Shown: one piece after another, positions 4,440 through 40,052 of the stretch
How the letters are laid out: each line of letters opens with the position of its first letter
Position numbering within the stretch: position 1 is the first letter of the stretch
IMG/VR virus record: IMGVR_UViG_3300044742_000148
Strand: one strand, 5' to 3'
Length of the DNA: 56,995 nucleotides
Origin: a virus
Program-made: the position numbers and the translations under genes
Notes under the pieces: model-generated
What the model saw: only the letters and a program-made list of their open reading frames with translations
Told to the model about the DNA's origin: nothing
Database searches by the model: none

Positions 4440-6154
4440 CCCGGCTGGCGCTCCGCCCGTACCAGGAGGAGGCCCTTGACGCCGTAGCCAAGGCGGAGGC
4501 TGAGGGCTGCCGCCGACAGCTCCTCGTGGCCGCCACCGGCCTCGGCAAGACGGTCATCTTCGCCCACCTCGCCGAACGACGGCAAGGCCGAGCTCTCATC
4601 ATCGCCCACCGGGACGAGCTCGTGTCGCAGGCCGCCGCCAAGGTCGCCGCCCAGTGGCCTGAGCTCGGCATCACCCCCGCCTGCGCCCAGCTTCTCGCCG
4701 ACGCCAAGGAGCCCGAGGTCCGTCTGATGGCCGCCTCCGCCCAGGTGCGCCGGGGAGGCATCGGCATCGTCAAGGCGGAGGCCGACGACACCGACGCCCA
4801 GGTGGTGGTCGCCTCCATCCAGACTCTGGCGAGGGCCCGCAGGAGGGACCGCCTCGCCGCCTCTCCGCCCTTCGACCTCGTGGTCGTGGACGAGGCCCAC
4901 CACGCCGCCGCCGACAGCTACGGAGCGGCCCTCGCCGCCGTCCGAGCCGGGGAGCCCGACGGGCCCCTCCTCATCGGCGTGACCGCCACCCCCGACCGGG
5001 GCGACGGCAAGGGCCTGGACGACCTGTTCGACCAGATCGTGGCGTCCTTCGACATCCTGTGGGGCATCCGAGCCGGGTACCTGTGCGACGTCCGAGGGCT
5101 CCGCATCGTGGTCGAGCACCTCGACCTGTCGGGCGTGAAGGTCCGCCGGGGCGACTACGACCAAGGCCAGGCCGGTCAGGCGATGGAGGACGCCGGAGCC
5201 CCCGAGCAGATCGTTCGGGCTTGGCTCGAGCACGCCCCCGGGAGACGGACTCTCGTGTTCACGCCGACCGTCGCCCTCGCCCATCAGGTGGCGGACGAGT
5301 TCAACCTGTCCGGGGTGCACGCCCAGGCCATCGACGCCTCAACGCCGCTGGGCGACCGCCGCCGAGCTCTCGCCGCCTACGCCACGGGCGAGATCGAGGT
5401 GCTGGCCAACTGCGGTGTCCTCACGGAGGGCTACGACGAGCCCCGCACCGACTGCATCGTGGTCGCCCGCCCCACCAAGAGTCGGGCCCTCTACGCCCAG
5501 ATGATCGGCCGGGGCACCCGCAAGCACCCCGACAAGGGCGACCTCCTCGTGCTCGACACGGTGGGCGCCACCCGCATGCACAGCCTCGTCACCGTCCCGT
5601 CGCTGATGGGCCTCGGGGAGACGGAGTGGGCCGGGCTGATGGAGACGGGCTCGGGCCTCCTGTCGCAGGTCATGCAGGACCACGACGACGAGCTCGTGCG
5701 TCTCGGCCGCCTCAGGGCGGAGGAGGCAGACCTGTTCCGCCAGCTCACGTCCAGCGCCGTGCGGATCGCCTGGGCGCCCGTGGACAGCCCCGAGCCGGGC
5801 CTCCGCCGGTATGCCCGCCCGATGGGCCCGGGGGAGCCGACCGTCATCCTCGCCCAGCGTGCCGAGGGGGACGTGTGGACGGCCGGGCTGCTCTGGCCCG
5901 ACGGCCGCAAGGAGGCGCTGATGGCCCTCCAGCCCCTGGCCGCCTGCCAGGGCGTGGCCGAGGACTTCGTGCGAGCCGGGCGCTCCGTCGTGCTGACCCT
6001 GGCCGACGCCCCGTGGCGGGCCCGGGCCGCCTCAGCGAAGCAGAAGGGCTACGCCCGAGCCCTGGGCGTGGAGGTGCCGAAGGGCGTGACGGCCGGGGAG
6101 CTCTCCGACCTGATCGCCGCCGCACAGCTCCGCAACGGAGAGGTGAGCCAATGA
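4436..6154 (+). CDS. Superfamily-2 DEAD/DEAH-box DNA helicase
   Basis: ATG 4436 in an ATGA overlap. LRPYQEEA, motif I VAATGLGKT, motif II VVVDEAHH, TATPDR and QMIGRGTR. Confidence 0.85.
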   Translation: MTRLALRPYQEEALDAVAKAEAEGCRRQLLVAATGLGKTVIFAHLAERRQGRALIIAHRDELVSQAAAKVAAQWPELGITPACAQLLADAKEPEVRLMAASAQVRRGGIGIVKAEADDTDAQVVVASIQTLARARRRDRLAASPPFDLVVVDEAHHAAADSYGAALAAVRAGEPDGPLLIGVTATPDRGDGKGLDDLFDQIVASFDILWGIRAGYLCDVRGLRIVVEHLDLSGVKVRRGDYDQGQAGQAMEDAGAPEQIVRAWLEHAPGRRTLVFTPTVALAHQVADEFNLSGVHAQAIDASTPLGDRRRALAAYATGEIEVLANCGVLTEGYDEPRTDCIVVARPTKSRALYAQMIGRGTRKHPDKGDLLVLDTVGATRMHSLVTVPSLMGLGETEWAGLMETGSGLLSQVMQDHDDELVRLGRLRAEEADLFRQLTSSAVRIAWAPVDSPEPGLRRYARPMGPGEPTVILAQRAEGDVWTAGLLWPDGRKEALMALQPLAACQGVAEDFVRAGRSVVLTLADAPWRARAASAKQKGYARALGVEVPKGVTAGELSDLIAAAQLRNGEVSQ

Positions 6155-6620: not shown

Positions 6621-7391
6621 ATGCCTGCCTCCAAGAGCCCCGCCGTCCCCGGTCAACGCCGCCTGGAGTACCTGCCGCTCCGCCAGATCATGAGCGCCCC
6701 CCGGAACCCCAACGGCCACGACCTGCCCGCCATCGCCGCCTCCATCCGCCGGCACGGCTTCGTGGAGCCGGTGGTGGTGGACGAGCGGACCGGGTTCCTC
6801 GTGGGAGGCCACGGCCGCCTGGAGGTGCTCGCCGAGATGCGAGACGCCGGAGAGCAGCCCCCCGAGGGCATCGTGGAGCAGGAGCGAGCCGAGAACGACG
6901 TGGCCGCCGAGCCGGAGTGGCTGGCGCCGACCATCCTGGGCTGGGCGTCCCGCTCAGACGCCGAGGCCGAGGCGCTTCTGCTCGCCATGATGAAGCTCCC
7001 CAAGACGGCCGTCGCCTCGATGGACCTCCTCGCCACGATGCTGGACGAGCTCTCGCAGGGCACCGAGCTCGCCCTCGCCGGGACCGGGTACAGCCCCGAC
7101 GACCTCGATGACATCTTGGCTGGCCTGTCCGAGAGCGCACCCCTGACCGAGCTGGAGTACGGGGACAGTCGCAAGAGCGCCTACCCCGAGCCGTCGTACG
7201 GGGAACGCACCGACAACTACCGCAACAAGCAGGTGCGGGCGATGGTGTTCGACTACCCGCTGGACGATTACGCCCTGGTCGCCGAGATGGCCGCCCGGGC
7301 CCGGGGCGCCTTCGGTGTGCAGTCCAACGCCGAGCTGTTCCAGCGGATGCTGGAGGCGTGGTGCATGCAGAACCCCGAGACGCCCGCATGA
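6621..7391 (+). CDS. ParB/Srx-like N-terminal domain protein
   Basis: LEYLPLRQIMSAPRNPNGH...IRRHGFVEPVVVDERTGFLVGGHGRLEVL matches the ParB N-terminal (ParBc) pattern. Confidence 0.75.
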   Translation: MPASKSPAVPGQRRLEYLPLRQIMSAPRNPNGHDLPAIAASIRRHGFVEPVVVDERTGFLVGGHGRLEVLAEMRDAGEQPPEGIVEQERAENDVAAEPEWLAPTILGWASRSDAEAEALLLAMMKLPKTAVASMDLLATMLDELSQGTELALAGTGYSPDDLDDILAGLSESAPLTELEYGDSRKSAYPEPSYGERTDNYRNKQVRAMVFDYPLDDYALVAEMAARARGAFGVQSNAELFQRMLEAWCMQNPETPA

Positions 7392-8317
7392 GCGACACCG
7401 AGCTCGCCCCCGCCGTCACGGTCCGTCTTGCCCCGCTCGACCCGGAGGCCCGCAAGGCCGCACTCGACCTCCTCGGCAAGGGCGCCGCCCTGGAGCCCCC
7501 CGGGGCGATGATCAAGGCGCCGTGCCTCGTGCGAGCCGGAGACGAGCTCGTGGCAGTCGTTCTCAGGATGCCGCCGGGCCCGCTGGCCTGGGTCCGCAAG
7601 GCGCTTCTCGGCTGGCCGTTCGACACGACCACGTACCGTTCGGCTGGCATCAAGAACAACGCCCGGACGTTCGGCTACCTGGCCCGCAACACGCTCCTGC
7701 AGCGTGACGGCTGCCGGGCCTGCCAGGGCTCCCGGCTGGCGCCCGAGGCCCACCACGGCATCGTGGCCCAGGCAGAGCTCCTGTCCGCCATGCTGGCCGA
7801 GGCCGCCCCAGAGCTCGCCGCCCGGGACCGGGCCGCCGCCGAGGCCGTCTCGCCGGAGTGGCGCATGGGCGACAGCCAGTGGACCTCCGGGGTGGCGAAC
7901 AGCACCTCCGTCCTGCCCTACCACTTCGACCGCAACAACCTGGAGCCCGTCTGGTCAGCGATGATCGTGGTGCGGAGGGGCGTGCGGGGCGGCTACCTCC
8001 ACGTGCCCGAGCTCGGCGCCTCGTTCCACTGCCGAGACGGAGACGTGGTGTGCTTCCCGGGCTGGCGCTTCGTGCATGGCGTCACCCCGGTCAAGATCGT
8101 GGAGCCCGACGGCTACCGCATCTCCGCCGTGTACTACTGCGTGGAGCAGATGCGGGCGTGCGGCACCGGAGCCGAGGAGATGGCCCGGGCACAGCTCGCC
8201 CGCACCAACCGGGAGGCCGACACCAGGCCCACCGTGGACCGCATCCCGGCTGCGATCGCCCGCCGAGATGCCGCTTCCAAGCCCACGGTTGAGGACGACG
8301 AGAGTGACGAGCTGTGA
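7388..8317 (+). CDS. 2OG-Fe(II) dioxygenase acting on nucleic-acid bases (TET/JBP-like; AlkB-like is the alternative)
   Basis: ATGA overlap. H-F-D at 7922..7930, a distal His at 8075..8077 (FVHGVTP), then YRISAVYY. The ligand spacing is 51 and 14 residues. Confidence 0.65.
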   Translation: MSDTELAPAVTVRLAPLDPEARKAALDLLGKGAALEPPGAMIKAPCLVRAGDELVAVVLRMPPGPLAWVRKALLGWPFDTTTYRSAGIKNNARTFGYLARNTLLQRDGCRACQGSRLAPEAHHGIVAQAELLSAMLAEAAPELAARDRAAAEAVSPEWRMGDSQWTSGVANSTSVLPYHFDRNNLEPVWSAMIVVRRGVRGGYLHVPELGASFHCRDGDVVCFPGWRFVHGVTPVKIVEPDGYRISAVYYCVEQMRACGTGAEEMARAQLARTNREADTRPTVDRIPAAIARRDAASKPTVEDDESDEL

Positions 8318-9252
8318 CCCTGAACCCCGACATGGGCGCCCTCGATGACCTCGCCACCTTCGCCCGCATCGAGGTGGAGAGCCGAGACGTGGAGCCGTGG
8401 GCCGACCTCCTCCGCCACCTGTACATGGAGGACGGGGCGCTGAGCCTGGAGGCCGCCCTGTGGCTGGTGGCGCTCTACAACACGTACGACAGCCTGGGCT
8501 CCGCCTGCTCAGTGTTCGCCCGCTGGCCGAGCCCGCACGAGCTCCTGACGGCCGCCGACTTCCCCGACAGCGCCCAGTACGAGTGCACCCAGGAGCGCCG
8601 CAACCTCAGGGGCGGCCTCGTGCTGACCCGCCACGCCTCCTACGGAGCTCTCGTGATGGGCGGAGACGGCACCCAGGCCTACTGGCTCGGCCAGGGCATC
8701 CCCCAGCCCGACGTGACGACTGACTGCTGCGACACCGGAGGCGCCGAGGCCGCCTGGGAGCCGATGACCCGCCACCTCCGCCGAGTGTGGGGCGTGGGCC
8801 GCCAGGCCGCCTTCGAGTGGGCCGAGTTCCTCGCCAAGGTGGTTGGGATGCGGCTGACCGCCCCCCACGCCCAGCTGTGGGAGAGCGAGGGCCCGAGACG
8901 GAGCCTGCAGCGCCTCTACGGCAACCCCGACCCGGACCGGGCGTGGCTGGACGAGGCCGCCCTGGAGTGCCGGGCGTGGCTGCTCTCGCAGGGCATCGAC
9001 CTCTCGTGGGAGGACTTCGAGACGATCATCTGCGACTTCAACGTGATGCGGGACGGCCGCTACTACCCGGGCCGCCACCTGGCCGCCCTCCGGGAGGAGA
9101 TCGACGGCGTGGCCGAGTCGGCGCTCCGGGCCGCCCTGGAGCACGCATGGGAGCAGGTCGTGCCGCCCGAGTGGCAGTGCATTGACCCGGGCATCGACAA
9201 GGCCAAGCTGCCCGTCTACCGGGACTCCGGCCTGATCAGGAGCTCTGCATGA
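8314..9252 (+). CDS. Hypothetical helical protein (function unknown; candidate base-transferase by context only)
   Basis: GTG 8314 in a GTGA overlap. 312 aa. I can name no motif. It sits between the two oxygenase genes. Confidence 0.7.
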   Translation: MTLNPDMGALDDLATFARIEVESRDVEPWADLLRHLYMEDGALSLEAALWLVALYNTYDSLGSACSVFARWPSPHELLTAADFPDSAQYECTQERRNLRGGLVLTRHASYGALVMGGDGTQAYWLGQGIPQPDVTTDCCDTGGAEAAWEPMTRHLRRVWGVGRQAAFEWAEFLAKVVGMRLTAPHAQLWESEGPRRSLQRLYGNPDPDRAWLDEAALECRAWLLSQGIDLSWEDFETIICDFNVMRDGRYYPGRHLAALREEIDGVAESALRAALEHAWEQVVPPEWQCIDPGIDKAKLPVYRDSGLIRSSA

Positions 9253-10316
9253 CGCCCGAGGAGACGGCCCGCTTCCTCAACGGCTACGCCCGCCGCCACG
9301 CCGCCGGGGCGTTCGCCACGCCCCTTGCTCGAGAGTTGAACGACGGCAACGTCCGCATCTGGAAGAACCCGCTCGGCCGCACTGTCGCCGTGACCAAGCG
9401 GCTGACCCGGGACAGCGTCCGCACCGACTGGCTCGGCCAGCCGTACACGCTTCCCCGGGGCGCCACCATCGTGACGCACCTCGGCCGGGAGACGGGCTCC
9501 CCCATCCCAGCCGACCTGGACGAGTACCACGCCATCTACGCCTACGCCGACGACCTGGAGCTGACCGCCGGGCTGGGCCGCCTCGGCCGGGAGGTCACAG
9601 CCACGAGGATCAGCGCCGCCTCCGAGATGATCCACTGCTGGGGGTGGCCGGGCACCGCCCGCCCGACGCCCCTCCTCGACGGCCTGACCGTGGTGCCGGT
9701 CGCCACGCACTCGGGCGACCTCCTCAACGCCTGCCGCCGAGAGCTCGCCCGGGCGACGGGGTGGGCCGATGACTACCCGTTCTACTCAGACGGCTCCTGG
9801 TCGGCGCTGTCCCTCCGGGGCTTCGACCCGGACCCGGCCTGGGGGGTGAAGCCCGCCGAGATGGGCCGCAAGTGGAACGACGCCCACCCGGGGGCTCTCC
9901 GCCGGACGTGCGTCTGGACCGACCTCGCCGACCGCTGCCCCACCCTCGTGCAGATCGCCTCGCAGCTGCCCGGGGCCGGGCTGGAACGGGTCCGCCTGAT
10001 GCGCATGAAGCAGGGGAAGCTCGCCCGCCACACCGACATCACCGACAAGGCCAGCGGCCTCCGGGACGGGCAGATCGCCCGCTTCCACCTGCCCCTGATC
10101 ACCAGCGAGCTCGTCGCCCTCCACGTCTGGGAGCTGTCCGGGGAGCTCCACAACTGGCACCTCGACGTGGGCGTCTGGTACTACCTCGACGCCCGCAAGC
10201 CGCACGCCGTCACCCAGGGCGACCCTGACCTCGACCGCATCCACCTCGTCGCCGACGTCATCTGCGACGAGTCCACCCGCTCCTACCTGGAGGCTTCATG
10301 CTCGGCTGCTACCTGA
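9249..10316 (+). CDS. Two-domain protein with a C-terminal Asp/Asn beta-hydroxylase-type (cupin) 2OG-Fe(II) oxygenase domain
   Basis: ATGA overlap. KLARHTDITD (His at 10029..10031), IARFHLPLIT, YYLDARKPHAV. The N-terminal ~170 aa are unassigned. Confidence 0.65.
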   Translation: MTPEETARFLNGYARRHAAGAFATPLARELNDGNVRIWKNPLGRTVAVTKRLTRDSVRTDWLGQPYTLPRGATIVTHLGRETGSPIPADLDEYHAIYAYADDLELTAGLGRLGREVTATRISAASEMIHCWGWPGTARPTPLLDGLTVVPVATHSGDLLNACRRELARATGWADDYPFYSDGSWSALSLRGFDPDPAWGVKPAEMGRKWNDAHPGALRRTCVWTDLADRCPTLVQIASQLPGAGLERVRLMRMKQGKLARHTDITDKASGLRDGQIARFHLPLITSELVALHVWELSGELHNWHLDVGVWYYLDARKPHAVTQGDPDLDRIHLVADVICDESTRSYLEASCSAAT

Positions 10317-10861
10317 TCGGCCAACCTGGCGCCGGCAAGTCCACCCTGTTCCGGGAGGTGACCCAAGGCATTCCGAGCTACGAGAGCTCCCAGCCGTTCG
10401 CCCACACCGTGTACCTGCCCGAGCCGTCGGGGGGCCGCCCGATCGGCGCTCAGCTGGGCCGCCACCACGAGACGTTCCCGGGTACCGACCGCCTCAGCAT
10501 GGCCGTCCAGCCCGACGCCGAGGCGTGGGTGCGCTCCGCCCCCTACCCCGTCATCATCGGCGAGGGCGACCGTCTCGCCACGCTCGGCTTCCTCACAGCA
10601 CTGACGGAGGCGTGCGACGAGGGCTGCACCATCCTGTGGCTGGACACGCCCCAGTTGACCGCCAGGGCCCGGGCGACCCGCCGGGGCTCAGCCCAGACGG
10701 AGGCGTGGGTGAAGGGCCGCCGCTCCAAGGTCAACCGGCTGACCGACCTCCTGCCGGTGGTCCGGCTCGACGGCACCCTCAGCCCGGAGCTTCTCGCCGT
10801 GCAGGCCATCGGGGCGTCCCCCGCCTTGCAGGCGCTCCACGCCCTGGTGCCCGGCCTCTGA
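10298..10861 (+). CDS. Small P-loop kinase/NTPase
   Basis: RBS ggagg before ATG 10298. Walker A LIGQPGAGKSTL. 187 aa. 19-nt overlap with the upstream gene. Confidence 0.7.
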   Translation: MLGCYLIGQPGAGKSTLFREVTQGIPSYESSQPFAHTVYLPEPSGGRPIGAQLGRHHETFPGTDRLSMAVQPDAEAWVRSAPYPVIIGEGDRLATLGFLTALTEACDEGCTILWLDTPQLTARARATRRGSAQTEAWVKGRRSKVNRLTDLLPVVRLDGTLSPELLAVQAIGASPALQALHALVPGL

Positions 10862-10958: not shown

Positions 10959-12011
10959 ATGCCCGACTACTTCGAATCAGGCTTCGCCGTCCGAGATGTC
11001 TCCTGGCACGGCAAAGAGACGCTGCTGCAAGAGCACCCCGAGAACTGGGCGGCAGCCCGCATCCTCGCTGGCCTCGACTGGGAGCCCGAGTACCAGGACC
11101 TCTACGTCCCCGAGGTCATCCCCGCCGGGGAGAGCGCCCCCGAGGGCTCCATCCATATCAAGGCGATGGGCAACGACAGCGCCGACCTGTGGCACGTCCC
11201 GGTCAACGGCCACCAGGCCATCATCCGCAGCGACAACCGGAAGGTGCTCGCCACCCCCAAGGACTCGTTCCGGCTGATCAGCAACACCGAGATGGGCGAC
11301 CTCCTGGAGGCGTACAGCGAGGCGTGGCGCAAGGCCGGAGCCAAGGTGCTGTTCGACACCGCCGGGTCCGTCTACGAGGGCCGGTGGGTGTACGCCACGC
11401 TCCTGCTGGACGAGCCCTACACCATCCCCGGCGACCCCAGCCCCATCCTCCCGTACGCAGCGTTCCTCAACGCCCACGACGGCACGGCCGCCTGCAAGGT
11501 CGTCAACACTCAGGTCCGGGTCGTCTGCGCCAACACGTGGAAGATGGCCGACGTGGAGGGCGAGCGCTCTGGCCGCCAGATCGTCATCCGCCACACGTCC
11601 GGTGCGACGGAGCGCCTGGAGGAGGCCAAGGCCGCCCTCGCCAGCGTCCGTGACGAGGTGGCGAACTACCAGATGCTCGCCACCGAGCTTGCCTCGATCA
11701 ACGTCTCAGACGCCCTCGTCAAGACGTTCCTCAGCGAGTTCATCCCGGTGCCGGAGAACAGCTCCGAGCGCACCCGGACGGCCCGCCTGGAGCGCCAAGG
11801 CATGTTCATGGCGCTGTACGCCTCGTCGCCCACGACCGACGGCATCCGGGGCACCGCCTACGGCCTCGTGCAGACGGCCGGGGAGTACCTGGACCACCTG
11901 CGCCCCGTCCGGAACAGCGACACCTACCTGGCCCGCACCCTGTTCAACAGCGAGCCCATCAAGGGCAACGCCGTCCGCCTCGTCCGAGAGCTCGTGCAGG
12001 AGGGCGTGTGA
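10959..12011 (+). CDS. DUF932-like phage/plasmid protein
   Basis: RBS aaggaga. N-terminus MPDYFESGFAVRDVSWHGKETLL...AGLDWEPE. The size (350 aa) is typical of the DUF932 family. Confidence 0.7.
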   Translation: MPDYFESGFAVRDVSWHGKETLLQEHPENWAAARILAGLDWEPEYQDLYVPEVIPAGESAPEGSIHIKAMGNDSADLWHVPVNGHQAIIRSDNRKVLATPKDSFRLISNTEMGDLLEAYSEAWRKAGAKVLFDTAGSVYEGRWVYATLLLDEPYTIPGDPSPILPYAAFLNAHDGTAACKVVNTQVRVVCANTWKMADVEGERSGRQIVIRHTSGATERLEEAKAALASVRDEVANYQMLATELASINVSDALVKTFLSEFIPVPENSSERTRTARLERQGMFMALYASSPTTDGIRGTAYGLVQTAGEYLDHLRPVRNSDTYLARTLFNSEPIKGNAVRLVRELVQEGV

Positions 12012-12529
12012 TGGCCGCCCCGTCCCTGCCCCGAGTGTCCGTCACCCCTCCCCCCCTTGCGGGGGGAGAGGTGCGCTCGGGCTCCCTTTCGCTCAACGCC
12101 GTGGCGGCCTGGAACACGGGCGTCTACGCCGGGGAGCTCCTGCGCTTCGGCTTCGACGTGGAGCTCCGGGACTACCACGCCCGGGGCCTCACCCAAGGCC
12201 TCCTGTGGGTCGGGCGTCCCGGCCTGGAGCCCGGCATGGTCCGGGTGGAGCTCGACCCGGAGAGCAACAGCCTCCGGGGCGTCTGGGACCGCTGCGTGGT
12301 GGTCCTGTACGGCAGCCAGCTGAACGCCCTTTCGGGCATGGTGCGCCGGAACCTTCGCCGCCTCAGGGAGCACGGCTCCGGCCGCCCCCCCGAGACGGTG
12401 GCGACCCAGGAGGCTTTCCTGGTGCGTCTGCTTGAAGCGCTGGCGGAAGCCGGGGCCAACAACCGATACGACGCAAGCGCCCGCCCCGAGCGAGCTCTGA
12501 CCGTCGTGCCTGACTACGAGGAGAACTGA
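12011..12529 (+). CDS. Hypothetical protein
   Basis: ATG 12011 in a TGATG overlap (GTG 12008 is an alternative start). ORF runs to 12529. Confidence 0.6.
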   Translation: MAAPSLPRVSVTPPPLAGGEVRSGSLSLNAVAAWNTGVYAGELLRFGFDVELRDYHARGLTQGLLWVGRPGLEPGMVRVELDPESNSLRGVWDRCVVVLYGSQLNALSGMVRRNLRRLREHGSGRPPETVATQEAFLVRLLEALAEAGANNRYDASARPERALTVVPDYEEN

Positions 12530-13086
12530 TGCACAGACTCATCCGCACGGCCGCCGCTGCGGCCCTCGGCCTCTCCGCCCTGTGGCTGACAACCACAGTC
12601 CCGGCTGGGGCCACCAACCCGCCTCCCGTGTGCGAGAACAACGGGCGTGAGTTCACCTACAACCCGTCGACCACCCAGTGCACGCCCCCGACCACGGGGG
12701 CTACGACGACAGGGGCGACCACCACGGCCGCCACGACCACGACAGCCACCACCCTCCCGCCGACCACCACCGTGCCGCCGACCACCACCACCGTGTTCAA
12801 CTGCGGCCTGTGTGCAGGCCAGTTCGGCACGACCACCACGACCGCCCAGGCCACGACGACCGTTGCCCCTCCGGTGACGACAGCGCCCCCTACGACGCAA
12901 CCTGCGCCGCCGCCGCCCGACACAACGCCTGAGCACGTGACCGTCCCCGACGCCCCCGCCACCACAGCTCCGCCGGAGCTTCCCGTGACCGGCAGCCTGT
13001 CGGGCCCGATGGTCGCATGGGCTCTCGCCGCCGGTGCCGTCGGCCTCGCCCTCGTGGCGTTCGCCAAGGCTGTCCGCCGGGCATGA
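12529..13086 (+). CDS. Secreted Thr/Pro-rich LPXTG cell-wall-anchor protein
   Basis: Signal peptide MHRLIRTAAAAALGLSALWLTTTVPAGA, long T/P tracts, then C-terminal LPVTG, a hydrophobic helix and KAVRRA. Confidence 0.8.
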   Translation: MHRLIRTAAAAALGLSALWLTTTVPAGATNPPPVCENNGREFTYNPSTTQCTPPTTGATTTGATTTAATTTTATTLPPTTTVPPTTTTVFNCGLCAGQFGTTTTTAQATTTVAPPVTTAPPTTQPAPPPPDTTPEHVTVPDAPATTAPPELPVTGSLSGPMVAWALAAGAVGLALVAFAKAVRRA

Positions 13087-37660: not shown

Positions 37661-38134
37661 ATGAGCAAGACCCAGCCCACCCTCACCATCACCGTCCCCG
37701 GCCGCTTCCTCATGGCGGAGGCCCCCAAGGGCGCCAAGGTCGTCAAGCCCGGCACCCGCCAGTCCACGGTCGAGTTCACCTCGGCGCAGCTGATCGAGTT
37801 CATGGCGAAGGCGGCCCACTTCGCCAACCACAAGAACTTCAGCCCGGTCCCGGCCGACCTGTGGCCGGTCATCGACTCGGCCCGCAACACGGTCAAGGCG
37901 CTCGACGCCAACGCCGCTGTGGCGGAGTTCCTCGGCATCCAGGGCCCCGTCGTTCCCCGGACGGCCCCGGCCCCCGAGGTCATCGAGGTCCCCGAGTCGA
38001 TCACCATCGTGGTCGAGACGCCGGACCCGGCCCCCGAGGTTGGCGACATCGACCCGGTCGCAGTGAAGCGGGCTGCCCGCAACGCCGCAGCCCGTGAGCG
38101 CCGTGCAGCCAAGAAGGCGAAGGCGAACGCCTGA
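37661..38134 (+). CDS. Hypothetical protein with a basic Ala/Lys-rich C-terminus
   Basis: ORF 37661..38134. RBS caggagg. Confidence 0.65.
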   Translation: MSKTQPTLTITVPGRFLMAEAPKGAKVVKPGTRQSTVEFTSAQLIEFMAKAAHFANHKNFSPVPADLWPVIDSARNTVKALDANAAVAEFLGIQGPVVPRTAPAPEVIEVPESITIVVETPDPAPEVGDIDPVAVKRAARNAAARERRAAKKAKANA

Positions 38135-38210
38135 CCCTCAGGGGGGGAGACCTCGCCGGGTGCGGGAAACGCCCCGGGGCAGGAAGGCTCCCCCCCACCT
38201 GGTCCAAGCA

Positions 38211-38254
38211 GCGCCCCCCGTCCACACCAGGGCCGGGGGGCGCTCTGCGTTCTC
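38211..38254 (+). terminator. Intrinsic terminator candidate
   Basis: 10-bp stem gcgccccccg/cggggggcgc (38211..38243) followed by tctgcgttctc. Confidence 0.5.
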
Positions 38255-38260
38255 GGGGCC

Positions 38261-38281
38261 GCTAACCCCGGTAACGTCTGG
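38261..38281 (+). promoter_or_regulatory. Degenerate promoter motif copy I (leaderless configuration)
   Basis: GCTAACCCCGGTAACGTCTGG. The -10-like ACGTCT at 38274..38279 lies 6 nt before ATG 38286. Confidence 0.4.
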
Positions 38282-38285
38282 CGCC

Positions 38286-40052
38286 ATGCGCATCGCCTAC
38301 ATCGGCAACTTCACCCGCCCCTGGTGCACCGAGGTCCACGTGGCCGCCGCCCTCACCGAGCTCGGCCACAGCGTGGTCCGTCTCCAGGAGAACCGCACCC
38401 AGCTCGACCAGCAGACCAAGGCCCTGCTCCACGGGGGCAACCGGCCGGGCCGCCTCGGGCAGGCGCCCCCGGACCTGTTCATCTGGACTCGCACGTGGGG
38501 CGTGCCGCCCGCCCAGGCGAACGGGATGCTGGAACAGCTGCGGGCCGCCGGGGTGCCCATCGTGTCGTTCCACCTGGACCGCTACCTCGGCATCGAGCGT
38601 GAGGGGATGGTGGACTCGGAGCCGTTCTTCCGGACGGACCTCCTGTTCACGCCCGACTCGGGCGACTGGGCCGCCCACGGTGTGCGGGCCCACTGGATGC
38701 CGCCGGGGGTGGACCGGGCCGAGGCCAACGCCGTGTACCGGCCGAACCCCAAGCGGTGGCCGTGGAAGGTGGTCATGGTCGGGAGCTTCCCGTACCCGCA
38801 CCCCGACTGGCACCCGGTACGAGCGGAGGTCGTCTCTCATCTGAGAGCCCGTTACGGAGACGCCTTCGCCGTGCTGCCCGCCGATCAGGGGGGCCGACCG
38901 ATCCGCAACGCCGACCTGGGGGAGCTCTACGCCACCGTGCCGGTGGTGGTGGGCGACAGCTGCTGGGCCGGGATGGCCGACGACCCGGGCGGCTACTGGT
39001 CCGACAGGGTGACCGAGACGCTGGGCCGGGGCGGCTACCTCATCCACCCGCACAGCGCCAAGCTCGCCGAGATGTACCCCGACCTCGCCCTCTACAGCCT
39101 GGGCAACATGGACGAGCTCGGCACGCTGATTGACGAGGTGCTGGAGCCCCCGAACGACCTGATCGCTGCCGCTGTGGCGAGGGCCCGGGTCCGCAACAGG
39201 GAGCTCGTGCTCGGCCGGGACACCTACGCCCACCGCATGGAGGAGCTTCTGGTCACAGCGATGGACGCCGCCCAGATCAGGGAAGCGTCCCGGCCTGTGC
39301 CGCCAGCCCCTCCGCCGAGGGCCCTGAGGAGGGCCCCTCGTGTGCCGGAGAGCCCCGAGGTCGCCGCCGCTGCCCAGACGGTCACTGGCACCTACCGGCC
39401 CCGCAGGCTGCGTCATACGTTCCGCTGGGCTGAGGGCGTCTCCGACAGCCACGCCGTCAAGGAGGTGTGGGACAACGACGACTACGGGATGGCCGGGCTT
39501 CCGCTGGCCGGGGCGACCGTCATCGACGTCGGCGCCAACCTGGGCGCCTTCTCCGTGCTGGCGGCCATGCTCGGCGCCCGAGACGTGCACGCCTACGAGC
39601 CTCACCCGGAGACGTTCGCCTGCCTGCTCGAGAACGTGGCGGCCTGCAGGGTGGCGAACAGGATCACGTGCCACAACCACGCCGTGGGGGGCTGGGCCCG
39701 GGTGGATGCGCTGGTGGGCTCTGGGGGTGGCGCTCACATCGGGGCCGGGGTGGACGGGCCCGAGGTGGCTGTGCTCGACATCTCGGCCGTGCTGGAGCCG
39801 GTCCAGGGGGAGGTCGTTCTGAAGCTGGACTGCGAGGGCTCCGAGTACGAGATCATCGACGGGCTGGCCGACGCTGACTGGGCGAAGGTCAAGGCGGTGG
39901 TGATGGAGTGGCACGGGCCCGGCATGCCCCACCTGGCCCACATCGACCTCGACCGCTGGGGGCCGATGGTCCAGCGTCTGGCCGACCACGGGGCGTTGAC
40001 GATCAAGGGCCACCCGCATCTGGGTGGGCTTCTGTGGTGCAGGAGGTACTGA
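38286..40052 (+). CDS. Fusion of a CgeB-like glycosyltransferase domain and an FkbM-family methyltransferase domain
   Basis: Internal ATG 38286 of ORF 38094..40052. The N-terminal part ends ...DRVTETLGRGGYLIHP...RDTYAHRMEELL. The C-terminal part has VIDVGANLGAFSV...MEWHG. Confidence 0.7.
   Translation: MRIAYIGNFTRPWCTEVHVAAALTELGHSVVRLQENRTQLDQQTKALLHGGNRPGRLGQAPPDLFIWTRTWGVPPAQANGMLEQLRAAGVPIVSFHLDRYLGIEREGMVDSEPFFRTDLLFTPDSGDWAAHGVRAHWMPPGVDRAEANAVYRPNPKRWPWKVVMVGSFPYPHPDWHPVRAEVVSHLRARYGDAFAVLPADQGGRPIRNADLGELYATVPVVVGDSCWAGMADDPGGYWSDRVTETLGRGGYLIHPHSAKLAEMYPDLALYSLGNMDELGTLIDEVLEPPNDLIAAAVARARVRNRELVLGRDTYAHRMEELLVTAMDAAQIREASRPVPPAPPPRALRRAPRVPESPEVAAAAQTVTGTYRPRRLRHTFRWAEGVSDSHAVKEVWDNDDYGMAGLPLAGATVIDVGANLGAFSVLAAMLGARDVHAYEPHPETFACLLENVAACRVANRITCHNHAVGGWARVDALVGSGGGAHIGAGVDGPEVAVLDISAVLEPVQGEVVLKLDCEGSEYEIIDGLADADWAKVKAVVMEWHGPGMPHLAHIDLDRWGPMVQRLADHGALTIKGHPHLGGLLWCRRY

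Follow-up and report, generated by a model that had tools for sequence, protein, structure and literature searches.

A two-domain 2-oxoglutarate oxygenase predicted to tailor hypermodified thymidine in phage DNA

Main finding

This work concerns a gene at positions 9249-10316 of IMG/VR virus record IMGVR_UViG_3300044742_000148, a stretch of 56,995 nucleotides that was analysed as a whole and is called the window below. The gene encodes a two-domain protein, in which a family-specific N-terminal domain is fused to an Fe(II)/2-oxoglutarate (2OG) oxygenase, and it belongs to an operon that also encodes a ParB-like protein, a TET/JBP-family dioxygenase, an amino-acid:DNA transferase (AADT) and a P-loop kinase. 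Because the gene just upstream is an AADT, beside the TET/JBP, ParB and kinase genes, we identify this five-gene operon, as read from its sequence, as a post-replicative thymidine-hypermodification module. It is moderately probable, judging mainly from gene context, that the oxygenase serves as a tailoring enzyme of this module and oxidises the group that the AADT has installed on DNA, most probably by C-H hydroxylation of an amino-acid moiety. The protein is a phage-specific oxygenase that most likely makes a DNA base not characterised so far. It would then represent a previously undescribed tailoring class, in which a 2OG oxygenase that carries a new N-terminal domain joins the known kinase/AADT pathway.

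The gene

The window is a phage segment of 71% GC that encodes a large terminase, a tape-measure protein, a lysin amidase and a Gam-like protein. Since a nucleotide search with the operon against 50,697 phage records gave zero matches and the large terminase has at most 33% identity to any phage record, the window phage has, by these sequence comparisons, no close cultured relative and no close reference genome. The features of the oxygenase gene, all on the plus strand, are as follows.

9249..10316, plus strand: the two-domain oxygenase; ATG start, 355 aa, in the tailoring slot between the AADT and the kinase
9249..9758, plus strand: N-terminal domain (aa 1-170), family-specific, with a modelled (AlphaFold2) alpha/beta fold that is weakly GNAT-like
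9762..9800, plus strand: W172-x-DD-x-P-x-YSDGSW184 motif, acid-rich, preceding the beta-helix core, invariant in the AADT-linked clade
10029..10037, plus strand: H261-T-D263, predicted proximal Fe(II) ligands, invariant in both clades, corresponding to H115-x-D117 of Cpz10
10203..10205, plus strand: H319 (RKPH motif), predicted distal Fe(II) ligand, aligning with H160 of Cpz10 and with the PHS motif of L-proline cis-4-hydroxylase
10236..10244, plus strand: R330-I-H332, invariant, aligning with R170/H172 of Cpz10; R330 is predicted to bind the C5-carboxylate of 2OG

An earlier note on this DNA, made from the letters of the sequence, had reported the open reading frame (ORF), and the peptides that it quoted are found exactly in the 355-aa translation. 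The GC content at third codon positions (GC3) of the ORF is 0.95, and more than 379 full-length homologue clusters are present in public data, so that the ORF represents a real gene. Translational coupling on both sides, also noticed earlier, is clear from the junctions: the start codon and the stop codon of the preceding gene share ATGA (9249-9252), with a caggag site at 9237-9242, 7-12 nt 5' of the ATG, and the 3' end overlaps the kinase start (ATG at 10298) by 19 nt. Further upstream, the TET/JBP and AADT genes overlap by GTGA at 8314-8317.

The oxygenase domain

The C-terminal part had been read as an AspH-type oxygenase with an HxD...H motif, and family and fold comparisons agree with this. 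Pfam PF05118 (Asp_Arg_Hydrox) covers aa 223-337 with an E-value of 9e-6 and a score of 26.0 bits against a cut-off of 22.6, and the score is 28 bits when the C-terminal domain alone is used; PHROG and NCBIfam searches with the protein gave no match. The AlphaFold2 model of the full-length protein, calculated from 50 homologues, has a predicted local distance difference test score (pLDDT) of 94 and a predicted template modelling score (pTM) of 0.90, and shows a double-stranded beta-helix fold. When this model was compared with PDB using Foldseek, the roughly 200 aligned columns corresponded to the C-terminal domain, and the matches included L-proline cis-4-hydroxylase (E 1.5e-10), Cpz10 (4e-8), proline 3-hydroxylase (2e-7) and human AspH (2e-6 to 1e-5). 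There were 240 fold matches in PDB at E <= 0.001, and among the 50 matches listed almost all are 2OG oxygenases. In addition, the family profile recovered L-proline cis-4-hydroxylase from the PDB sequences by sequence alone (E 3e-5).

The residues H261, D263, H319, R330 and H332 are invariant in the 50 homologues, which have 45-74% identity to the protein, and they are also kept in 14 distant homologues that form a separate clade (see below). R278/H280 and H332 are conserved second-shell residues that are invariant in both clades. A loss of the facial triad in an alignment, which would have counted against the earlier reading, is not seen; the triad and the 2OG-binding Arg match those defined by experiment in Cpz10 and L-proline cis-4-hydroxylase. 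In Cpz10 the triad is H115/D117/H160, and R170, which binds 2OG, and H172 have also been described (PMC9814697). Note that the printed profile alignment stops short of HxD, and that H261 and D263 were assigned via the motif, the Pfam match at aa 223-337 and the fold match. Because the catalytic residues are invariant in the near and distant clades, the protein is very probably an active Fe(II)/2OG oxygenase, as far as sequence and model can indicate.

AspH itself carries a TPR domain and a two-His iron site. In the present protein no TPR domain was matched by Pfam, and the N-terminal part has a modelled alpha/beta fold, weakly GNAT-like, instead. Since the TPR domain is missing and the full HxD...H triad is present, the protein is not an AspH orthologue; it is closer to the free-proline hydroxylases and Cpz10. 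Hydroxylation of amino acids or amino-acid moieties is the activity of all its nearest characterised relatives.

The W172-W184 motif may act as a substrate-binding lid that determines specificity; in the distant clade, its place is taken by QHYSxYNRRxSW. One homologue (P0121, encoded at L039 5265-7337, 690 aa) has an insert of about 340-380 aa within this motif, between the residues equivalent to Y179 and S180 (DDYPFY|SDGSW). The insert has Cys as its first residue and TLAH and DADG motifs in its interior, and its end is FTGN followed by Ser. These features make it a probable intein that contains a homing endonuclease; Pfam gave nothing for it, and the PDB sequence search gave only sub-threshold intein matches. 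An HNH/NUMOD4 gene lies just upstream of the P0121 gene.

Co-inheritance with one AADT subtype

Gene order was compared in 36 related loci, drawn from IMG/VR and metagenome contigs as well as from Mycobacterium phage LilMcDreamy and a Kribbella prophage. The oxygenase gene is followed immediately by the kinase gene in all 36 and preceded immediately by the AADT gene wherever the sequence suffices, the most divergent branch included, and a ParB-like gene is found upstream in most of the loci. The clade always occurs within DNA-modification modules, in keeping with the DNA-modification operon that the earlier note had proposed. Median identities to the window proteins are 51% (AADT), 46% (oxygenase), 40% (TET), 37% (kinase) and 28% (ParB), so that the AADT is the best-conserved partner.

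A reverse survey that started from the AADT covered 41 viral contigs, in which two AADT subtypes are cleanly split:

Window-type AADT, 22 contigs: the oxygenase gene is next in 21, with one exception (L138)
Phelemich-type AADT, 19 contigs: the oxygenase gene is next in 0; an FAD oxidoreductase like the PaMx11 gp47 lyase is found in 11, and a 290-aa protein in 5

The difference between 21/22 and 0/19 is highly significant (Fisher exact p = 8e-11). The same split is seen between two closely related mycobacteriophages of the subfamily Bclasvirinae, LilMcDreamy and Phelemich: their TerL (82% identity), RuvC (75%), TET (66%), kinase (62%) and ParB (53%) are conserved, whereas their AADTs have 27% identity and their tailoring genes are non-homologous. 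The order is AADT, FAD oxidoreductase, kinase in Phelemich and AADT, oxygenase, kinase in LilMcDreamy and the window. Thus, the AADT and the oxygenase are a cassette that is swapped as a unit within a conserved ParB-TET-[ ]-kinase frame. This exchange is strong evidence that the oxygenase acts on, or in the service of, the product made by its own AADT subtype. Hydroxylation of an amino-acid moiety on DNA, one of the options raised earlier, is therefore supported as the leading one, since the upstream gene is an AADT whose subtype is co-inherited with the oxygenase.

Several replacements in the tailoring slot can be described. In L138, the product of 4855-5538, which follows a window-type AADT and replaces the oxygenase, is 227 aa long and has DxFxGxG and DHPY motifs; it had no Pfam or PDB sequence match and is a putative amino-group methyltransferase, and an HMUDK_HMUD1-type kinase gene is next. 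In other actinophage modules, the tailoring role is taken by an FAD oxidoreductase resembling the PaMx11 gp47 lyase or by the 290-aa protein, which then follows the kinase (L045 2545-3333, Phelemich gp4; L046 3054-3926, Wooper gp5; L047 3761-4642, Tonitrus gp8). The 290-aa protein has a weak Rossmann-type match at its N-terminus. It is the "hypothetical protein" of the Tonitrus five-gene system, and is no homologue of the oxygenase.

The N-terminal domain

The earlier note recognised nothing in the N-terminal part of about 170 residues, and aa 1-170 indeed gave no match in Pfam, PHROG, NCBIfam or the PDB sequences. When the domain was modelled alone using AlphaFold2 (pLDDT 93), its top Foldseek matches in PDB were mostly GNATs, though weak (E 0.009-0.4, TM 0.3-0.48). 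In BFVD, a library of viral models, most named matches after the LilMcDreamy homologue are also GNATs, and equally weak. The model thus points to a GNAT-like fold, with a weak resemblance.

Comparisons at the sequence level gave no GNAT. The domain matched no GNAT in Pfam at E 10, where the only match was a spurious one to MauJ; its profile found nothing among the PDB sequences at E 10; and hhalign against the PaMx11 GNAT gp48 gave a probability of 0.1%. A conserved Q/R-x-x-G-x-G/A motif for binding the acetyl-CoA pyrophosphate after strand beta-4 was sought across 50 homologues and was not found: in the candidate motif, R80-x-x-G83-x-P85, R is present in 30 and G in 33 of the 50 sequences. 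With no sequence or profile match and a motif conserved at only about 60%, we do not claim that the domain is a member of the GNAT family. The residues that are conserved in the domain are Y13, AGAFAxP at 19-25, R54/S56/R58/D60/G63, Y99/D102, R114, E126 and W131.

A search of 1.84 billion representative proteins with the domain profile found 111 proteins, nearly all of 350-410 aa with the domain at the N-terminus. Ten of these were scanned; the N-terminal domain was present in all ten and a C-terminal PF05118 domain in nine, and the tenth (P0197), which had no Pfam match, ends at a contig edge. Because both domains are present in every complete representative scanned, the N-terminal domain and the oxygenase are probably an old, obligate pair. 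From the high pTM of the full-length model, the two seem to be held in a fixed mutual orientation.

The fold resemblance gives rise to an alternative explanation, in which the protein combines oxidative cleavage with acylation. The oxygenase would hydroxylate the carbon beside the nitrogen of an N-alpha-linked amino acid, the resulting hemiaminal would give 5-aminomethyl-dU and a keto acid, and the GNAT-like N-terminal domain would acylate the amine. N-dealkylation through hydroxylation is an established chemistry of 2OG oxygenases (AlkB, JmjC), which counts for this explanation, as do the preponderance of GNATs among the top fold matches in two libraries and the gp47-lyase-like FAD oxidoreductase that occupies the slot in Phelemich and in 11 of the 19 contigs with a Phelemich-type AADT. 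The slot of PaMx11 contains a lyase and a GNAT, which here would be one polypeptide, and the link of the distant clade to N6/N4 methyltransferases would fit the oxidation of a carbon on an exocyclic nitrogen. However, the GNAT resemblance is weak in all comparisons (E >= 0.009, TM <= 0.48), and the domain has neither sequence nor profile similarity to PaMx11 gp48 or any PDB GNAT. Only about 60% of the members have the R/QxxGxG/A-like acetyl-CoA motif, and the AspH-like group contains no characterised N-dealkylase. Moreover, the AADT changes along with the tailoring gene (27% identity between the sister phages), which suggests another adduct and not a shared glycine intermediate. Cleavage and acylation are, on these grounds, unlikely.

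The distant clade and the distribution of the family

Profile searches also identified a distant clade of proteins of 380-410 aa with the same two domains in 268 IMG/VR contigs, and the gene context of 80 sampled loci was examined. In 24 of the 80, a fusion of ParB_N with an N6/N4 DNA methyltransferase ends at the start of the oxygenase; the loci with this linkage include L054, L073, L081, L089, L091 and L109. In L092 (4432-7188), ParB_N, the N6/N4 methyltransferase and the oxygenase form one ORF of 918 aa. The combination of ParB-methyltransferase and oxygenase may be a second, undescribed DNA-modification system. Because the family recurs beside enzymes that place groups on DNA bases, our analysis favours DNA-borne substrates for the family as a whole.

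Among 185,579 cellular species genomes, close homologues were found in four, all Actinomycetota; the Kribbella one, which was examined in detail, is a prophage.

Proposed mechanism and its alternatives

In the mechanism that we propose, the ParB-like protein and the TET/JBP dioxygenase would convert thymine in DNA into 5-hydroxymethyluracil, the P-loop kinase would phosphorylate it in DNA, and the AADT would swap the phosphate for an amino acid or amine; these three steps are known from homologous systems. The Fe(II)/2OG oxygenase would then oxidise this appended group on the DNA itself. The favoured chemistry is C-H hydroxylation of an amino-acid moiety to yield a hydroxylated aminoacyl-thymine, because every characterised close relative catalyses C-H hydroxylation, Cpz10 doing so on the aminoacyl group of a uridine nucleoside, where it acts at the beta position (PMC9814697). 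The N-terminal domain would be a module that presents the substrate, either DNA or the adduct, rather than an independent enzyme. Since the AADT is swapped together with the oxygenase, the exchange suggests that its donor differs from the glycine of PaMx11-type systems.

Several results weigh against this mechanism. The net charge and pI of the two domains show no marked positive charge and no clear DNA-binding signal. In the distant clade, AADT, TET or kinase neighbours were detected in none of the 80 loci, and about 17 of these loci lie in T4-like marine myophage contexts near a peptide deformylase gene. The family is thus not restricted to thymidine hypermodification, and a link of all its members to AADT modules was rejected. 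In addition, the nearest solved relatives, the proline 3-/4-hydroxylases, take free amino acids and not polymers, and the strict co-inheritance with one AADT subtype fits an action before the transfer equally well.

These last two points are the basis of an alternative in which the oxygenase hydroxylates a free amino acid, such as proline or pipecolate, and the cognate AADT then installs the product; the best structure and sequence matches are indeed free L-proline cis-4-/3-hydroxylases. We consider this order of events rather unlikely. In all the thymidine-hypermodification pathways that have been reconstituted, tailoring takes place after the transfer, on DNA (PMC8989533). The distant clade adjoins ParB-DNA methyltransferases or is fused to them, and no amino acid takes part there; the extra N-terminal domain within a rigid two-domain model is foreign to the single-domain hydroxylases of free amino acids.

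It is also conceivable that the oxygenase merely travels with the module and hydroxylates a phage or host protein, as AspH does, or some other metabolite. PF05118 includes protein hydroxylases, and the distant-clade members in T4-like phages have no DNA-modification genes nearby. Nevertheless, in essentially all loci of the clade the gene stands between AADT and kinase in translational coupling, it is swapped along with the AADT, and the protein differs from AspH in its lack of the TPR domain and in its full triad, so that an unrelated substrate is very unlikely.

The proposed tailoring of an AADT-installed group can be extended, more tentatively, to the family. It may constitute a phage-specific class of two-domain Fe/2OG "DNA-adduct oxygenases", with the present protein as its founding member, that oxidise groups already appended to DNA bases, the group being an amino acid on thymine in actinophages and the product of a ParB-N6/N4 methyltransferase in the distant clade; the N-terminal domain would present the modified base.

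Neighbouring genes

The other genes of the module, all on the plus strand, are listed below.

6621..7391, plus strand: ParB-like protein, predicted activator of the adjacent thymine dioxygenase (phrog_620/723, E 1e-23)
7358..8317, plus strand: TET/JBP-family 5-methylpyrimidine dioxygenase, predicted to convert T into 5-hydroxymethyl-deoxyuridine (5-hmdU) in DNA (PF12851, E 7e-9, 35.6 bits against a cut-off of 34.9; also phrog_6059, E 1e-54)
8314..9252, plus strand: AADT of the window-type subtype (PF18724 ADDT, E 2e-7, 31.1 bits against a cut-off of 26.2)
10298..10861, plus strand: P-loop nucleotide kinase 3, predicted 5-hmdU DNA kinase (PF18751 Ploopntkinase3, E 1e-26; homology at the family level)

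The base dioxygenase-like and P-loop kinase neighbours described in the earlier note are thus found above the Pfam cut-offs. Its third neighbour was placed correctly, but is not the unknown gene it was taken for, as the PF18724 match makes it an AADT. In the AADT, Cys240 within an ETxxCDF motif is invariant across the two subtypes and is the putative catalytic cysteine. No C5-methyltransferase gene is adjacent to the module in the window.

This gene set agrees with published systems. According to the main text of a recent study, phage TET/JBP enzymes of the kind found in the window are post-replicative thymine dioxygenases, a subclass of the phage T-dioxygenases requires an adjacent ParB to act on double-stranded DNA, as shown experimentally, and the ParB-dependent enzymes are linked to P-loop kinases and AADTs (PMC13229309). 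In the phages M6, ViI and PaMx11, the kinase adds a phosphate to 5-hmdU in DNA, the AADT brings in an amino acid in its place, and tailoring enzymes then reshape the adduct on the polymer (PMC8989533).

Genes of such modules are systematically mis-annotated in public annotations (in the window and, for example, in L001, L037 and L045). The TET/JBP dioxygenase is named "queuine tRNA-ribosyltransferase" by phrog_6059, and the 5-hmdU DNA kinase is named "terminase small subunit" by phrog_800, the characterised PaMx11 gp49 included.

Just after the kinase, the window contains a DUF932 gene (10959-12011, plus strand; PF06067, E 6e-42), which recurs near the module in L004, L005, L007 and L039. In the divergent contig L023, a GDP-mannose 4,6-dehydratase gene (34-1251; PF16363, E 6e-135) is located some 1.2 kb upstream of the TET-AADT-oxygenase-kinase genes, with small ORFs in between, and may hint at an extra sugar chemistry.

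Two further genes of the window, both on the plus strand, deserve a brief description. The ORF at 12529-13086 encodes 185 aa with an N-terminal signal peptide and a long low-complexity region rich in Thr and Pro; at the C-terminus, LPVTG precedes a hydrophobic stretch and RRA. Such a pattern is the signature of a sortase-anchored cell-wall protein, here encoded by a phage. The gene at 38094-40052, which lies among structural genes, encodes 652 aa in which a glycosyltransferase-like domain (PF13524) is fused to an FkbM methyltransferase domain (PF05050), and may be involved in virion glycosylation.

Significance

Thymidine hypermodification can be regarded as a fixed core (a source of 5-hmdU, the kinase and the AADT) to which exchangeable tailoring enzymes are added. 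The tailoring enzymes shown so far to act on DNA are pyridoxal-phosphate decarboxylases, a radical S-adenosylmethionine isomerase, a flavin lyase and an acetyltransferase. If the proposed reading is true, a 2OG oxygenase in this slot would add a new reaction class and predict a new natural DNA base in actinobacterial phages; a hydroxylated aminoacyl-thymine is not known from any genome so far. The prediction is directly testable, since Mycobacterium phage LilMcDreamy, which carries the gene, is cultured. The strict pairing of one AADT subtype with the oxygenase also offers a handle on the donor specificity of AADTs, and the association with ParB-DNA methyltransferases hints that oxidising pre-installed DNA marks is a broader phage strategy. 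In practical terms, enzymes that oxidise defined DNA adducts would be of interest for DNA labelling and sequencing chemistry.

Comparison with known systems

Literature searches that combined phage hypermodification, ParB or methyltransferase with beta-hydroxylase found no report, and none of the publications consulted describes an AspH-like oxygenase for such clusters; searches for LilMcDreamy and Phelemich found no functional work. Closely related systems include the ParB-dependent thymine dioxygenase pathways (5mYOX clade C1; O'Toole et al. 2026, PMC13229309), which, as described in the main text, share with the window the adjacent ParB and TET/JBP genes, the kinase and the AADT. That main text names GATases, kinases and AADTs as partners and does not mention an AspH-like oxygenase, although the figures and tables of the paper could still show the gene.

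The order AADT, tailoring, kinase is common to the window and to gp46-gp49 of Pseudomonas phage PaMx11, which are an AADT, an FAD-dependent lyase, a GNAT acetyltransferase and a 5-hmdU DNA kinase (Lee et al. 2021, PMC8989533). The PaMx11 gp46, a characterised glycine:DNA transferase, shares PF18724 with the window AADT, although the similarity between the two is marginal (E 0.011). In both systems the kinase is mis-annotated as a small terminase, and the tailoring slot is oxidative and possibly contains a GNAT-like module too. They differ in that 5-hmdU is derived from a dUMP hydroxymethylase in PaMx11 and from ParB plus the TET/JBP dioxygenase in the window. Moreover, the tailoring enzyme of PaMx11 is a flavoenzyme whereas that of the window is a 2OG oxygenase, whose N-terminal domain has no sequence similarity to gp48. 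The GNAT-fold modifiers of phage DNA, PaMx11 gp48 and the Mom protein of phage Mu (PMC13219725), act on DNA bases, and most fold matches of the N-terminal domain belong to this fold class. The similarity is weak and at the fold level only, and the cofactor-binding motif is not conserved in the domain, which may not be catalytic at all.

For the oxygenase domain, the best structural and profile matches are L-proline cis-4-hydroxylase (4P7W) and proline 3-hydroxylase (1E5R), with which it shares the RxHL, DxxxPH and RxHLVVD motifs. These enzymes act on free amino acids, have no extra N-terminal domain and are not phage-encoded, and the W172-W184 motif is specific to the phage clade. Human AspH shares PF05118 with the protein, which has neither its TPR domain nor its EGF-domain substrate logic. 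The caprazamycin beta-hydroxylase Cpz10 (PDB 7V4F) has the AspH-like fold, its RxH, distal H and second RxH are aligned with those of the protein, and HxD is present in both. It is a single domain of about 180 aa with about 20% identity to the protein, and its substrate is a small molecule in antibiotic biosynthesis, in which the amino-acid moiety is carried by a uridine-derived nucleoside.

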